Shown piece by piece: positions 7,358-42,403 of a stretch of 64,000 bases of DNA. The translations under genes and the position numbers were made by a program. Every line of letters starts with the position of its first letter. Position 1 is the stretch's first letter. A model generated the notes under the pieces. That model did no database searches. It was not told where the DNA came from and was given only the letters and a program-made list of their open reading frames with translations. The DNA comes from a virus, in UHGV virus genome UHGV-0091736. One strand, 5' to 3'.

Positions 7358-7537
7358 TTATGCAGTCAGGAGGTGAAGCAGGAACGGGATAACAACAGCT
7401 ACGATAACCATGATAGTTGATGCTGTTTGAATCTCACCTTTCTTATCAGGAGTTTCTTCAATAAGCTTACCAGAAGCCCAATAAATACCACCACCAATAA
7501 AGATAGCCCAAATACCCCATACGATTGCTGATAACAT
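7358..7537 (-). CDS. small membrane protein (59 aa, two hydrophobic helices)
   Basis: Hand-translated MLSAIVWGIWAIFIGGGIYW...IMVIVAVVIPFLLHLL. Confidence 0.45.
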   Translation of the reverse strand: MLSAIVWGIWAIFIGGGIYWASGKLIEETPDKKGEIQTASTIMVIVAVVIPFLLHLLTA

Positions 7538-32846: not shown

Positions 32847-33746
32847 TTATGCCGCTTGACGTGCTGCCATAATCTCAGCTGCCTTGCGTAATACTTCTTC
32901 TTCTTCTGCTTTCGCCGCTTGTTCAGTACGGGTAGCAACCGTTGAAGAGATACGACCGCGCAGGTTATCTAACTTCTCCTGCATAGCTGAAACAGCTTTT
33001 TCCATTTCATCAGCATAGGAGTCTAGAGATTCCAGTTCCTTGCTTGATGCGTTCATCAGATAATCATCGGAGATCGCTACCGTTGAAGCCGTAACTTTCT
33101 TGATGAGTGAGTCGAAAGACTTTTTAACCTTCCCAACTTCTTCACTCAAGGCAATAGTGTTATCGCTAGTTGCGCCGTTGCGCTCATCTGCCAGCAATTT
33201 AGATTCAATACGGATGGCATTCAAGCGTTCAACCAAAGCGTAAATATCTTGGTTAAAATCTTCCTTGTTTTTCGCCGGAATTTGCAGGTGTGCCGCCACG
33301 TTGTCATTGCAACCTTTGTAGAAGTTAGGATTATCCACTTCAATTGCACGACCTAAAGCAAAGTTTTCGAAAGCATTTGACCAGCGAGCGCGGTTTTGTT
33401 CCATTTTGGTTTTAATTTGCGCTTCTTTCGCATCTTCTTTCGCTTTCGCTTCACCTTCCAGATTAATCCACTTCTTACGACCGTTCGCCGCATCAGTGTT
33501 AAACTTGATAGGAGTTAAGAAAGTGATCGCGGTAGAAATAACATCCATATCGCGGAAACGTTCAGTTAACAGAAAATCAACAGCCGCTTGTAATACGTCC
33601 AGCTTCTTACCGTTGCTGCGGAAGTGCTGTAAGTGCCCTAACAGGAAGTTAGAAACATCTTGCTTAATCGCTGCGTTATTGCTGCGGATGTTGTTAGCCA
33701 GAGCGTTAAAACCAGATTCGTTAACCAGATTAAAGATTTTAGCCAT
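32847..33746 (-). CDS. hypothetical helical protein (299 aa); first gene after the long leader
   Basis: AAGGTG SD 7 nt before the ATG at 33746. The ORF track GTG at 33755 lies inside the SD. Confidence 0.6.
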   Translation of the reverse strand: MAKIFNLVNESGFNALANNIRSNNAAIKQDVSNFLLGHLQHFRSNGKKLDVLQAAVDFLLTERFRDMDVISTAITFLTPIKFNTDAANGRKKWINLEGEAKAKEDAKEAQIKTKMEQNRARWSNAFENFALGRAIEVDNPNFYKGCNDNVAAHLQIPAKNKEDFNQDIYALVERLNAIRIESKLLADERNGATSDNTIALSEEVGKVKKSFDSLIKKVTASTVAISDDYLMNASSKELESLDSYADEMEKAVSAMQEKLDNLRGRISSTVATRTEQAAKAEEEEVLRKAAEIMAARQAA

Positions 33747-34568
33747 GATATTCACCTTTCAATTGTAAGGGCGCTATTGCCCCGCTCTCTATGAGCTTGT
33801 TTAAGTCACTATTAACTTAACTCTAACCACTCACTTTTTAAGTAGTTACAGGTAAGCGGGGCGGTCTTATCAGGAGTTAACCTTGCCGCCCCCTTATCCG
33901 TGATGTTTCATCTGGTATCTTTAATTAGTCGCTATAAATAAAGCCGACCTGATAGCGATGATCAATCATCACAATAAGGCAGTGCGTCCGACTCTAATTA
34001 GTTACGTTTATTGTAACCGTCGGCAATATCGTCTACTTTGCTTTCGCTCTCGCCTATCCTTTTGTATTAACTCTCAATCGCTAGTCATCGCCCACTACGG
34101 GATACTATTGCGAAAGAGTCATTAACCGTCTAATATTCCGACGTTTTATATCTTTCAGCGAGTTTACTACATAAACCGACTATGTACTTTCATCATAAGA
34201 CGAATCTCAAGCCGTTCACATCGTAAACGTTCACACTAAACCTTATTGTTAAATAGCAATTTGCCACTTTTTAACCGCTCCCCGCCGCCCTCAATTGGGC
34301 GTTAATTTGTCGGACTTGTCTACCCTGATTAACTTCTTTCACTGTAGCGCCTTGTTAGCGATGACCGCCGCTACCCTTAACCGTGGGCGATTAGCTTAAG
34401 CCTTTGCGTGCACTCAGTGAATCCGTTTATCAGTGGTGACGTTTCCAGTAAGGGATTGCAAGACTGTTTCCTCTGATAGTTTAGAGAGCCTTACATCGTT
34501 TTATCTGGTACGCTTTCCGATGGTTATTATCATCAAGCATATTCAACCGATATAGAAGAACGTTTAAA

Positions 34569-34582
34569 TTGTTAAAGAGCGG
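34569..34582 (-). promoter_or_regulatory. boxA-like antitermination element 1 (CCGCTCTTTAACAA)
   Basis: GCTCTTTAACAATTTA is a 16-nt identity to the E. coli rrn leader boxA region as I recall it. Preceded by hairpin AGCGTG-AGTAAA-CACGCT. Confidence 0.6.
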
Positions 34583-34671
34583 TAAATCTATCAGCGTGTT
34601 TACTCACGCTATGCAACTGTTAGCCGTTGTCTCGCTTTTCACTTAAGCGGTGATTTGCTTAGTGAGTGCTC

Positions 34672-34700
34672 ATTATGAATCATGTTGTTTTAGCTGTCAA
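34672..34700 (-). promoter_or_regulatory. strong sigma70 promoter (TTGACA-N17-CATAAT)
   Basis: -35 at 34695-34700 and -10 at 34672-34677, read on the minus strand. Confidence 0.7.
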
Positions 34701-34802
34701 CCACTTTTTTAATCTTTTTCGTCGTTCCCATTATCGGGAGGATATACCAATCAGCTTTATTTGATTGGAGATTAAGCGGTGATGCTTAACTTATGATTCA
34801 TA

Positions 34803-34816
34803 TTGTTAAAGAGCGG
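34803..34816 (-). promoter_or_regulatory. boxA-like element 2 (CCGCTCTTTAACAA)
   Basis: Exact repeat of element 1. Preceded by hairpin AGCTAACAC-GAT-GTGTTAAGCT. Confidence 0.6.
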
Positions 34817-34932
34817 TTACTACATTCACAGCTTAACACATCGTGTTAGCTTGTCAACTCTTTCTATCGTCTTCTTTTTCTCTCTCTCCCTCTGTCTCGC
34901 GTGAATCTATGCGAAAGGGCAAGACGATCAGT

Positions 34933-34946
34933 TTTTAAAGAGCGGG
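34933..34946 (-). promoter_or_regulatory. boxA-like element 3 (CCCGCTCTTTAAAAA)
   Basis: About 25-35 nt downstream of the predicted TSS of the 34978-35006 promoter. Confidence 0.55.
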
Positions 34947-34977
34947 GATTTTTTAAGTCATCGCTGACTGAGTGCTC

Positions 34978-35006
34978 ATTATGAATCAGGCTTTTTCCGG
35001 TGTCAA
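34978..35006 (-). promoter_or_regulatory. strong sigma70 promoter (TTGACA-N17-CATAAT), near-duplicate of 34672-34700
   Basis: -35 at 35001-35006 and -10 at 34978-34983. Shares GATTCATAATGAGCACTCA with the other copy. Confidence 0.7.
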
Positions 35007-35042
35007 TACTCTTTTTAAGAATATTTTCACTTTTTAGCCTGA

Positions 35043-35056
35043 TTTTTAAGGAGCGG
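35043..35056 (-). promoter_or_regulatory. boxA-like element 4 (CCGCTCCTTAAAAA, degenerate)
   Basis: One substitution in the core relative to GCTCTTTAA. Confidence 0.4.
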
Positions 35057-35232
35057 TTGAAGTCTCTCTCTTCACGGGGTATTGCGTAGTTCCCAACGTT
35101 CTCTGCCACCGCGCTATAGGTAGTGGCTTAGTATCCGACAATCAGACCTTCTTCACTCGGTGAAGCCCGGCCCCTCAATTTACTGTTAGTGAGGCGGTTA
35201 CAGTGTACCTGCTACCGATTCCGTGGTGGCGT

Positions 35233-35260
35233 CTTACTGCTTGTTGCTTACTGCTTACTA
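35233..35260 (-). repeat. four tandem heptamers (minus: TAGTAAG CAGTAAG CAACAAG CAGTAAG)
   Basis: Plus strand reads CTTACTG CTTGTTG CTTACTG CTTACTA. Starts at the predicted TSS of the 35269-35296 promoter. Confidence 0.6.
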
Positions 35261-35268
35261 CGGGATTC

Positions 35269-35296
35269 ATATTACTATACAGGAAAACCCTGTCAA
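35269..35296 (-). promoter_or_regulatory. sigma70 promoter (TTGACA-N16-TAATAT)
   Basis: Read on the minus strand. Confidence 0.55.
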
Positions 35297-35382
35297 TACC
35301 CTTTTTTCAAATTATTTTTCATCTCACTGTTTTCTAAAGGAATTTATTTTATTGTCAGTAGGACACCGGAAGGAATCAGGAG

Positions 35383-35395
35383 GTAAAAGAGCGGG
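35383..35395 (-). promoter_or_regulatory. boxA-like element 5 (CCCGCTCTTTTAC; lambda-nut-like CGCTCTTxxAC)
   Basis: Read on the minus strand. Lies between the 35.5-kb terminator and the 35.29-kb promoter. Confidence 0.35.
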
Positions 35396-35493
35396 AGCGC
35401 GTGATACATCACAGGAAACGGCTTGTAAAGCAGTAATAAGCGTCCTAAAACGCATCACAACGAGCTAAAAGGGAGTAAGGCATACAATCACCT

Positions 35494-35524
35494 TAGAAAA
35501 TAGAAAAGCCTCTTAATGAGGCTT
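35494..35524 (-). terminator. Rho-independent terminator (minus)
   Basis: AAGCCUC-AUUAA-GAGGCUU then UUCUAUUUUC. Follows the 35601 stop. Confidence 0.6.
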
Positions 35525-35600
35525 ACAGGAAGGATTTAAAGCATCAGATAGATTATGACCATAGGCATGACCACGGCACAATACAGGAGAAAGATTAAGC

Positions 35601-35966
35601 CTATGGATTTACACATTGACCGTTACCGGATTCTACTTCGTTCATGGACTCATCAAAGAGTGTCAACGATGAGCGCATCAGGTGATCGACCGTGATTTGT
35701 TTACCAGTGGTTTCATTTACTAATAGAATAGTTTTACTATCTGATTGCACATGTTCGAAATCATTTACATGTAAAATAATAACTTTAGGTGACTTTTTAC
35801 CAGTGTCATAATTCTCAATCAAATAGGTGCACTGTAAACCGTCAACCGTAGCAGGGGAAAACGTTGCAGCCCTTACGCTACCCAAAGATGATAGCAGGAC
35901 ACCTAACAGGAGAACAACCAGAAAGAAGCCTACAACCATTTTAACTAAGAATTTAATAAACCACAT
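35601..35966 (-). CDS. secreted/membrane-anchored hypothetical protein (121 aa from MWFIKF..)
   Basis: N-terminal hydrophobic segment VVGFFLVVLLLGVLLSSLGSVRA. The ORF track start at 36053 is less likely. Confidence 0.5.
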   Translation of the reverse strand: MWFIKFLVKMVVGFFLVVLLLGVLLSSLGSVRAATFSPATVDGLQCTYLIENYDTGKKSPKVIILHVNDFEHVQSDSKTILLVNETTGKQITVDHLMRSSLTLFDESMNEVESGNGQCVNP

Positions 35967-36059: not shown

Positions 36060-36323
36060 TCATTCTTCATCATTGCCTTTACCTTCAAAGAGTGATACTC
36101 TAAGCAATTTAATTTCTTCCAGTGACAGAAGAATCCCACGTTGCGCCAGATAATGACCAGCTTTAACATCATCCATAATTAGAGCGACGGCAGGAAATTC
36201 TACCGCATTAATATTATCGCCACCAACAAACAAGATCAGACACTTGTCAGAATTGTCAGTATATGAGAAATCAATATCCCCATAGTTATGAGTAGGGATA
36301 GTGTAACTATGTTCTTTAGCCAT
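36060..36323 (-). CDS. hypothetical protein (87 aa)
   Basis: ORF track. Confidence 0.5.
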   Translation of the reverse strand: MAKEHSYTIPTHNYGDIDFSYTDNSDKCLILFVGGDNINAVEFPAVALIMDDVKAGHYLAQRGILLSLEEIKLLRVSLFEGKGNDEE

Positions 36324-41464: not shown

Positions 41465-42403
41465 CCATATGAGTCTATGGCTATATTCGCACAGTGCGTC
41501 ACACGTACACTCACAACTAAAGGTCTAGTTACAATTACAGCTACACCAGAGAACGGTTTAACTGAACTGGTAGATAAATTTATGAAAGGTGAAGGGGATG
41601 AGAACACAGGTTCTCTATATTTCCAGAATGCTTCTTGGTGGGATGCTCATGCAGACCTAGGTGGACATATCACTGACCAAGATATAAAAGATATGACTGA
41701 AGGTATTCCAGCGTGGCAGTTAGAGATGCGTTCGAAAGGTATGCCATTGTTAGGAAGTGGTTTGATATATGATGTATCGGATGACACAATTAAATGTGAA
41801 CCATTCGAAATTCCTGATACGTGGAAACGTGTCTGTGCAATTGATATTGGTATTGATCACCCAACTGCTGCTGTTTGGACAGCTTACGATGCAAACACGG
41901 ATACTGTCTATGTTTACGACTCATATAAAGAAGGTGGCTTTACTCCAGTGTATCATGCTCCAGCTATTAATGGTCGTGGTCAGTGGATTCCTGTCATCCT
42001 ACCGCATGATGCGGACAATATTGAGAAAGGTAGTGGATCATCTGTTGCTCAATTCTATAAGAATGCAGGAGTTAATGTACAGAGTGAGACCTTCTACAAC
42101 AAAATTGGAATGGATGGTAAAAAGAACTTCTTTGTAGAACCCGGAATCACAGATATCCGAGAAAGAATGATGAGTGGACGCTTTAAAATCTTTAACACAG
42201 CTGCTAACGCTAAGCTATTCGAAGAGAAAGCTAGATATCACCGCAAGGTTGGTAAGATTATTAAAGAACATGATGACTTAATGGATGCAATGCGCTATTC
42301 AGCGTGCTCTGTTACACATCGTGGTCGCTCTAAGCATGACGTTAGCTACGGAAGTGCTTCTCTGTATGAGGCAAACGTAAGCAGATGGAATCAGAGTTAC
42401 TAA
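41465..42403 (+). CDS. terL: terminase large subunit, exon 2 (ATPase C-motif and nuclease domain)
   Basis: ..TRTLTTKGLVTITATPENG.. (coupling motif) and CAIDIGIDHP.. (RNase H-like nuclease). Confidence 0.8.
   Translation, partial: PYESMAIFAQCVTRTLTTKGLVTITATPENGLTELVDKFMKGEGDENTGSLYFQNASWWDAHADLGGHITDQDIKDMTEGIPAWQLEMRSKGMPLLGSGLIYDVSDDTIKCEPFEIPDTWKRVCAIDIGIDHPTAAVWTAYDANTDTVYVYDSYKEGGFTPVYHAPAINGRGQWIPVILPHDADNIEKGSGSSVAQFYKNAGVNVQSETFYNKIGMDGKKNFFVEPGITDIRERMMSGRFKIFNTAANAKLFEEKARYHRKVGKIIKEHDDLMDAMRYSACSVTHRGRSKHDVSYGSASLYEANVSRWNQSY

Follow-up and report, generated by a model that had tools for sequence, protein, structure and literature searches.

A large structured RNA predicted at the head of the early transcript of phiEco32-like phages, behind boxA elements of the ribosomal type

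What is carried by a stretch of about 0.8 kb that holds no gene and lies between the early promoters of a phage and the first gene downstream of them? We analyzed such a stretch at positions 33756–34568 of a 64,000-nt viral sequence (UHGV-0091736; hereafter, the window), which belongs to a phiEco32-like podophage (Kuravirus, Gordonclarkvirinae). For the 2 kb surrounding the stretch, 109 phage records match, the foremost being those of phiEco32, SU10, Paul and further Kuravirus/Gordonclarkvirinae podophages (88–93% identity), and the equivalent locus in phiEco32, SU10 and Paul is a gene-free spacer of ~1.95 kb between genes 125 and 124. Because all genes flanking this spacer lie on the same strand, which is the minus strand of the window, the early sense runs along the minus strand from high to low coordinates. 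The SU10 paper described three sigma-70 promoters in the spacer, which genome papers have so far treated solely as a promoter region (PMC4281155).

We propose that the stretch encodes a large, structured RNA without coding function that makes up the 5′ portion of the main early transcript. This RNA would be synthesized with the aid of boxA and the Nus factors and would act at the RNA level early in infection. The parts of this proposal differ in strength. From the comparative data it is nearly certain that the stretch encodes a functional structured RNA, and boxA/Nus-dependent synthesis is probable; whether the RNA acts as more than a cis-acting leader is evenly balanced, and the proposal as a whole is one that we favor by a modest degree.

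A preliminary description of the window, made from its sequence, had reported that the stretch contains no open reading frame (ORF) of more than 60 codons and that the first downstream gene starts at the ATG at 33746. Both statements held: the longest ORFs (55, 40 and 34 amino acids, aa) all lie on the plus, antisense strand, the minus strand has none of at least 30 aa, and the ATG is the start of the homolog of phiEco32 gene 124 (hereafter, gp124). Relatives neither lack the region nor fill it with genes. When the 813-nt stretch was used as a blastn query against GenBank phage records, all 98 related records matched it with 100% query coverage in one piece (805–815 nt, 75–95% identity), so that its length is kept without ORFs in 98 phages; sense-strand ORFs across 25 relatives measure 0–54 aa with no conserved position, and phage XT18 has none of at least 20 aa. 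We aligned 4.4 kb around the leader from 24 representatives (Kuravirus, Suseptimavirus and Nieuwekanaalvirus) and the window. The leader was nearly free of indels in comparison with the indel-rich promoter array upstream, and its mean pairwise identity of 0.87 was flat over the three phases (0.866, 0.865 and 0.880). In five downstream genes, identity was 0.63–0.71 at codon position 3 and 0.79–0.94 at positions 1 and 2 (0.91–0.94 in gp124). Neither a conserved reading frame nor a 3-nt periodicity of substitutions, both of which we looked for across the relatives, was found in the stretch. Invariant columns made up 56% of the leader compared with 19% of gp124 third positions; the longest invariant run of the whole alignment (18 nt) was AGATTTACCGCTCTTTAA, comprising boxA and its flank, and the second longest was AATTGCTATTTAA, within the leader. 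These patterns mark the stretch as evolving under purifying selection as non-coding sequence.

The sense strand also carries a strong signature of RNA structure. Folded as a single sequence, it reached −283 kcal/mol (z = −8.6 against dinucleotide shuffles; antisense z = −4.5). RNAalifold, applied to an alignment of 25 sequences that runs from the last promoter to just beyond the gp124 start codon (alignment A1), gave a sense-strand consensus of −248 kcal/mol with 240 pairs, of which 76 had compensatory changes (both partners replaced in one or more sequences without loss of pairing), with 0.7% broken cells and 666 G-U cells. The antisense strand gave −157 kcal/mol, 55 compensatory pairs and 310 G-U cells. 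Coding controls with the same phylogeny and folding procedure reached −83 (sense) and −73 (antisense) kcal/mol with 7–10 compensatory pairs for the gp124 coding sequence, and −83 and −45 kcal/mol with 9–21 such pairs for genes 123–120. The 76 covarying pairs compare with 39.5 ± 3.2 in shuffles, none of 500 reaching 76, and with 5–11 when partners were slid by 1–3 columns. Pair counting on A1 found 99.3% of cells paired, a cell count that, owing to shared ancestry, makes independent events seem more numerous than they are; we address this with the coding and slid controls and with the distant clades analyzed separately below.

The inverted repeats singled out in the preliminary description are all present, most of them as parts of this fold, at slightly different positions or spacings. 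GGGGCGG/CCGCCCC (33858–33864 and 33886–33892) has a spacer of 21 nt, not 23, and forms helix 35, in which five of seven pairs covary within the subfamily and all seven across clades. GCCC-TCAATT-GGGC, at 34287–34300 after a small correction, is helix 18, with one covarying pair, and the palindrome GATGAT-CA-ATCATC, shifted by one base to 33957–33970, is the almost invariant helix 32. The sequence TCGCTAT-N16-ATAGCGA exists three bases away from its reported place, at 33929–33958; the pairing proposed for it gave way to another, helix 33, in which the 3′ arm pairs with the intervening GGUCG and covaries. Searches of the window for repeats of leader segments or complementarity to them returned nothing but copies of boxA and, within or beside coding sequence at 7441, a 14-mer that we attribute to chance. 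Counts of CsrA-type GGA and Shine-Dalgarno-like AAGG motifs, assessed only by eye, were unconvincing.

The RNA recurs in far more divergent loci. Protein and DNA-motif scans of IMG/VR yielded nothing beyond four known isolates, and IMG/VR and the JGI metagenomes added close relatives only; an extra IMG/VR hit (L029) was rejected as a chance 21-mer within a coding gene. In Logan and ENA assemblies, gp124 homologs at 67–70% and 48–49% identity were found, and nine loci were fetched. In none of the nine was a gene called upstream of the gp124 homolog, a gap that spans 1.4–3 kb in six; the contigs of L050 and L053 end 0.97 and 1.6 kb upstream of it. In all nine loci, the nhmmer profile built from A1 hit the 600–1000 nt directly 5′ of gp124 (E-values 1e-106 to 1e-16), where the leaders are 48–63% identical to that of the window. 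When folded alone, an intermediate group gave 228 pairs, 107 of them compensatory (15 in its gp124 coding sequence), and a far group 260 pairs, 80 of them compensatory (22 in its gp124 coding sequence), these coding controls having diverged to a similar extent as the leaders. Within 3 nt of pairs in the window structure lie 76% of the pairs of the intermediate group and 35–51% of those of the far group. A covariance model of a 3′ segment (R1, 33952–33800) found exactly one full-length copy in each of the nine distant loci (E-values 1e-31 to 1e-8), with 29 of 39 pairs covarying, and no second copy within the window. A model of an inner segment (R2, 34165–33980) recovered the intermediate relatives, all five of them; covariation was seen at 24 of its 34 pairs, and 97.4% of cells were paired. 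The right ends of Salmonella phage 7-11 and Cronobacter phage GAP52 (Grimontviridae) gave no nhmmer hit, no covariance-model hit (R1 included) and no boxA. Ahead of the RNA, every distant locus carries promoter-hairpin-boxA units in two or three copies (for example, L046 2576–3090), their sigma-70 promoters standing in tandem and each being followed by a perfect boxA; one boxA copy in L046, GCTCTTTAACAATTTATCAG, is identical over ~20 nt to what we take to be the E. coli rrn leader. The comparisons thus show a predicted RNA conserved together with gp124 and the promoter/boxA units across Gordonclarkvirinae and distant uncultured relatives. The preliminary description had raised a long structured RNA as one possibility, which is strongly supported by selection without codon periodicity, strand-specific covariation and the same architecture in relatives of only ~50–60% nucleotide identity.

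Five of the Logan contigs (L041, L043, L045, L046 and L054; 15–96 kb, gp124 at 48–70% identity) have ~3 kb without a called gene between a divergent gene cluster and gp124, of which the leader RNA occupies the last ~1 kb; the other 2 kb would comprise promoters and may include genome ends or further RNA.

The RNA, whose ends we infer from the last early promoter and the last conserved hairpin, would extend over ~0.85–0.9 kb of the minus strand, from ~34665, the probable start of its shortest form, to the hairpin at 33768. Along it follow two 5′ hairpins, boxA, domain I, a hairpin with a boxA-like element, domain II and eight 3′ hairpins (Table 1). The alignments show a predicted fold of ~240 pairs, with strand-specific covariation, in which the two domains are closed by long-range helices and followed by the 3′ hairpin series. 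Of the two 5′ hairpins, helix 2 has one covarying pair and helix 3 three of six; helix 3 ends 10 nt ahead of boxA and thus occupies a boxB-like position in the order boxB-boxA of rrn leaders, its function as a boxB being putative. Domain I is closed by helix 5 (34568–34556 with 34282–34270), the 5′ strand of which starts directly after boxA; this helix has three covarying pairs, and 11 of 11 pairs are formed in the five intermediate relatives. The interior of the domain is less conserved in the most distant relatives, in which nhmmer hits begin at model position ~275–364. The core of the internal boxA-like element, UAUUUAACAAU, is kept in all clades and shares positions with the 5′ strand of helix 20, which closes domain II. 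In this helix, ACAAUAAGGU at 34249–34240 pairs with GCCUUAUUGU at 33980–33971, and clear compensatory changes in distant loci could be read by eye in a MAFFT alignment. The last hairpin stands 10–15 nt from the gp124 Shine-Dalgarno sequence in every clade (~10 nt in the window).

Table 1. Features of the early promoter region, the predicted RNA and the adjoining gene, in the direction of transcription.
Feature	Coordinates	Strand	Remarks
Intrinsic-terminator-like hairpin	35506–35524	−	3′ of the gene-125 homolog; parts the right-end mini-operon from the promoter array
Upstream promoter/boxA units	34803–35338	−	Indel-rich among relatives; transcripts also enter the RNA
Promoter, then boxA-like GCTCCTTAAAA	35296–35269; 35054–35044	−	
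Promoter TTGACA-17-CATAAT, then boxA	35006–34978; 34943–34933	−	
boxA	34814–34804	−	Preceded only by TTGACA with a poor −10
Last early sigma-70 promoter, TTGACA-17-CATAAT (34700–34672)	34672–34720	−	A/T-rich upstream stretch
Two small 5′ hairpins (helix 2, 34629–34614; helix 3, 34610–34593)	34593–34629	−	Both 100% paired
boxA ACCGCTCTTTAACAA	34569–34583	−	Entry to the structured RNA; GYTCTTTAANA matched perfectly
Domain I, ~300 nt (helices 6–18)	34270–34568	−	RNAalifold and pair counts
Helix 19 hairpin with internal boxA-like TTGCTATTTAACAA (34259–34246)	34246–34269	−	Second-longest invariant block
Domain II, ~280 nt, closed by helices 20 and 21, holding helices 22–31	33971–34249	−	
3′ hairpin series (helices 32–40)	33768–33970	−	Pair counts and covariance model R1
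Helices 32, 33, 34 and 35/36	33970–33957; 33949–33927; 33912–33902; 33892–33858	−	
Helices 37, 38, 39 and 40	33851–33821; 33819–33802; 33796–33784; 33783–33768	−	
Shine-Dalgarno AAAGGTG (~33760–33754) and gp124-homolog coding sequence (ATG 33746 to 32847)	32847–33760	−	

The promoter and boxA array that the preliminary description had placed upstream of the stretch is real, with three sigma-70 promoters found by scanning and three perfect boxA elements on the sense strand. In the scan the last promoter gave 11 of 12 matches, and conservation of its hexamers extends over 25 phages. Perfect matches to GYTCTTTAANA, the consensus of the gamma-proteobacterial boxA (PMC5725501), number four in the window. 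Three lie in the spacer in the sense orientation (34570–34580, 34804–34814 and 34933–34943); the fourth, at 42259 (minus strand, within the rightward late region), is probably due to chance. Together with one copy that has a single mismatch, the three perfect copies form an array (34570–35054, minus strand) in which most members stand behind a scanned promoter and a short hairpin, the boxA elements at 34933–34943 and 34570–34580 lying ~35–90 nt downstream of a scanned sigma-70 promoter. For the 12-mer GCTMTTTAAMAA, 0.04 occurrences would be expected; there are four, all of them in the sense orientation (34246–34943). At the head of the RNA, GCTCTTTAACAAT is invariant in every clade, including the far group. 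These elements are of the rrn type in that they match the consensus on the transcribed strand behind a promoter.

A perfect TTGACA at 34856–34851 (34826–34856, minus strand) precedes the boxA at 34804–34814 with no good −10 hexamer at 16–18 nt, and may be a fourth promoter, weak or of the extended −10 type, or a decayed one.

Untranslated RNA is quickly terminated by Rho, which boxA and the Nus factors counter on rRNA operons and long CRISPR arrays (PMC7665894). Since ~900 nt of untranslated RNA precede the first early gene, boxA would have an obvious use here. The sense RNA is poor in C (18.7%, compared with 23.8% G), and C-poor RNA is a poor substrate for Rho loading. We envisage that host sigma-70 RNA polymerase starts at the tandem strong promoters, that boxA would recruit NusB/NusE and other Nus factors, as it does in rRNA operons and boxA-led CRISPR arrays, and that the Nus-modified polymerase would become resistant to Rho over the untranslated ~900 nt. 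The Nus complex may also help the long-range helices to form, given that the domain-closing helix has its 5′ strand immediately next to boxA. In ribosomal RNA (rRNA) operons, a leader boxA precedes 16S and a spacer boxA precedes 23S rRNA, and the antitermination complex is thought to aid long-range folding. By analogy, the domain-I helix abutting boxA and the overlap between the boxA-like core and the closing helix of domain II suggest a role for boxA beyond protection from Rho. The folded RNA would then act at the RNA level very early in infection.

As to what the RNA does, its size and two-domain architecture lead us to favor a self-contained RNA (a scaffold, ribonucleoprotein or decoy, perhaps excised from the transcript) over an RNA that only regulates gp124 in cis. 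A more specific version, which we put forward tentatively, likens the locus to a miniature rRNA operon: boxA with domain I and the boxA-like element with domain II would make up a free-standing RNA gene, the product of which is excised or accumulates and exerts its effect in trans. It might form a particle of RNA only or one containing gp124, or serve as a decoy that occupies Nus factors, ribosomal components, an RNase or a defence that senses RNA. The protein encoded directly behind the RNA is a candidate partner. The gp124 homolog (299 aa; PHROG 13018, listed as function unknown) always follows the RNA directly, and this adjacency is conserved down to 48% protein identity. It has the invariant motifs NGKK and G-x-KKWIN-x-x-GE and a long C-terminal helix.

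Several results weigh against the RNA we propose or against parts of it. The gp124 protein gave no sign of RNA binding, with no Pfam or PDB match, an isoelectric point of 5.8 and an AlphaFold model (pLDDT 63) too poor for a structure search. The internal boxA-like element has one mismatch to the consensus, and one-mismatch hits occur at chance level (18 versus 13.4 expected), so on sequence alone we do not count it as a boxA. No boxC-like, GU-rich element follows boxA; the sequence there is AAUUUAAACGUUCUUCUAUAUCGG, with nothing resembling UGUGUGGG, which we take to represent the rrn boxC. Model R2 does not recover the central sub-domain in the most distant group, and peripheral parts therefore vary; covariance-model alignments are, moreover, fitted to the model and so biased towards structure. 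On the sense strand we found no terminator-like or recognizable processing site between the RNA and gp124. The RNA therefore runs straight into the gp124 ribosome-binding site, which a cis-acting leader would fit equally well.

Such a leader is the alternative that survives best. It would control the stability or translation of gp124 and the early messenger RNA, or act as a sensor gating the early operon, and we regard it as a real if minority possibility. The uninterrupted passage into gp124, the constant short distance between the last hairpin and the Shine-Dalgarno sequence, and the co-inheritance of RNA and gene over the whole range of gp124 divergence are all what a cis-acting leader predicts. 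For that role, however, an RNA of ~900 nt with ~240 conserved pairs and two long-range-closed domains is unusually large; we know of no riboswitch, T-box or attenuator near this size, the RNA being several times larger. No Rfam cis-regulatory family matched it. A single predicted pairing joins the 5′ end to the Shine-Dalgarno sequence of gp124: helix 4 of the RNAalifold structure, formed by AUUUACC in the 5′ flank of boxA and GGUGAAU. It has no covariation and its 5′ arm is unconserved in distant relatives, so we rejected it.

The preliminary description had also considered a DNA element such as an origin, which our results disfavor. An origin primed by transcription, by an R-loop primer like ColE1 RNA II or a T4/T7 origin transcript, would account for strong promoters that lead into a long, untranslated, structured transcript rich in G and poor in C, which includes runs of G (GGGCGGCGGGGAGCGG, for example), and ColE1 RNA II is itself structured. 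We nevertheless consider it improbable. The G-runs lie within covarying helices, no antisense (plus-strand) promoter-like site was found in 33756–34568, and neither iterons or repeated boxes other than boxA nor an A/T-rich unwinding element is evident (GC 0.40–0.44). The cumulative GC-skew minimum, at ~37.6 kb, is away from the stretch, and in every clade a translated gene adjoins the RNA. Still less likely is an element acting as double-stranded DNA (an array of protein-binding sites, a signal for packaging or one that pauses genome entry) with merely incidental hairpins. The stretch does lie ~4–5 kb from the right genome end inferred from phiEco32 coordinates, in the part likely to enter first. 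Such sites would not, however, require covariation between helix strands 265–290 nt apart, nor the asymmetry by which covariation and G-U tolerance favor one strand (−248 versus −157 kcal/mol; 666 versus 310 G-U cells), and the leader contains no direct-repeat families. Hidden coding, as micro-ORFs or a recoded gene, is hardly credible: some annotators call small hypothetical proteins here, but the substitutions have no 3-nt periodicity, the short sense ORFs have no positional conservation, and one phage has none of at least 20 aa. A neutral spacer with chance hairpins, for which only the absence of annotation speaks, is already refuted by the conservation and covariation data.

Some observations concern the surroundings of the RNA. 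A ~210-nt non-coding segment between the first and second early promoters (35033–35246, minus strand), absent from about half of the kuraviruses, is 82–90% identical to the early left-end leader of unrelated T7-like phages, with matches in Kayfunavirus Mt1B1_P3, in GA2A (nt 595–802, just after an annotated host-polymerase promoter), in several Salmonella phages and, weakly, in Pectobacterium phage PPWS1. It ends in the boxA-like GCTCCTTAAAA, its fold is unexceptional (z = +0.28), and it resembles a mobile module of early leaders that podophage families have exchanged. Farther upstream, the site equivalent to the hairpin at 35506–35524 is annotated as a terminator in SU10 and SU7. The phiEco32 genes 125 and 127 correspond to small ORFs of 121 and 87 aa at 35601–35966 and 36060–36323 (minus strand), which many records, and also PHROG 13168, label "terminase" and "polymerase". 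Pfam gave no support for either label and both ORFs are far smaller than such enzymes; the labels are probably propagated misannotations. The cumulative GC-skew minimum marks the switch point from leftward early to rightward late genes, ~1 kb short of the physical genome end inferred at ~38.5 kb by phiEco32 coordinates.

The RNA matched nothing described. The 4227 models of Rfam 15, which include GOLLD, ROOL, OLE, HEARO, raiA, group I and II introns, RNase P, tmRNA, riboswitches and T-box, gave no match in the whole window at the gathering threshold, and with E-values up to 10 only noise in 33600–35650 (14–21 bits, against thresholds of 34–167). By blastn, 5,426 E. coli genomes contain no similar sequence. 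In the searchable literature we found nothing on the 0.8 kb downstream of the promoters, and older phiEco32 transcription papers might comment on the spacer; with that proviso, we rate the predicted RNA as a new family with no described counterpart.

The proposed RNA would account for a 2-kb spacer that appears empty, and its phage would be the first virulent phage, in the literature we searched, found with rrn-type boxA signals for a long untranslated RNA. In work on related phages, the antitermination strategy "remains to be defined" (PMC8948821), and the boxA array offers a concrete candidate for it. If the likeness to a miniature rRNA operon is true, the product would be the first abundant molecule of infection and the first large RNA of the catalytic or scaffold class in a genetically tractable virulent coliphage. 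These are common, easily grown E. coli phages, and members in the BASEL collection (Bas86–94) plate on K-12 with restored O-antigen (PMC11990801); genetics, structure probing, cryo-electron microscopy and Nus/Rho experiments are therefore immediately possible.

Among known systems, the E. coli rRNA operon offers the closest parallel in layout. Strong sigma-70 promoters, each with an A/T-rich stretch upstream, stand in tandem; a hairpin and then a perfect boxA follow; and the transcript continues as a long structured RNA that is not translated, in which the helix closing the domain starts immediately behind boxA. A second boxA-like element precedes domain II, comparable to the spacer boxA ahead of 23S rRNA. 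The rrn leader itself combines tandem promoters and boxB-boxA-boxC with a large RNA enclosed in a long-range stem, and its complex comprises NusA, NusB, NusE, NusG, S4 and SuhB. Unlike that operon, the phage RNA has no similarity to rRNA and no boxC-like element, and protein-coding early genes lie on the same transcript. In CRISPR arrays preceded by boxA, the element likewise heads an unusually long untranslated transcript and prevents Rho termination (Stringer et al. 2020, PMC7665894). The phage RNA differs from these arrays in having no repeats or spacers and in forming one large fold rather than processed units.

Bacterial and phage non-coding RNAs of more than ~500 nt with complex conserved folds are rare; those with known functions are ribozymes or ribonucleoprotein scaffolds, and GOLLD, ROOL and OLE are still unexplained. 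The phage RNA is of this large ornate type, being non-coding and longer than 500 nt with a covarying multi-domain fold, and it shares these traits and the lack of an assigned function with GOLLD, ROOL, OLE, raiA and HEARO (PMC5737381, PMC12286853), and the association with phages with GOLLD and ROOL. The resemblance is one of kind only, as no homology was found and their Rfam models remained unmatched even at E-values up to 10; the host group here consists of virulent coliphages, and the RNA is fixed at the 5′ end of an early operon behind boxA. ColE1 RNA II is also a long untranslated structured transcript made by host RNA polymerase from a strong promoter, but the phage RNA has neither an antisense promoter of the RNA I type nor a defined 3′ origin, and a translated gene follows directly. 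The early leaders of T7-like phages (A1–A3, leader, gene 0.3) share an array of host-polymerase promoters near the entering end and an untranslated leader, and one upstream module of the window is common to Kayfunavirus early leaders; lambda nut and HK022 put are RNA elements that act on the transcribing polymerase. All of these measure tens to a few hundred nt, compared with ~900 nt and a conserved two-domain fold here, and no N-like protein or put-like two-hairpin element was identified. The predicted RNA is a member of none of these families; it is most like an rRNA operon or a boxA-led CRISPR array in the proposed manner of its synthesis, and like GOLLD, ROOL and OLE in kind.

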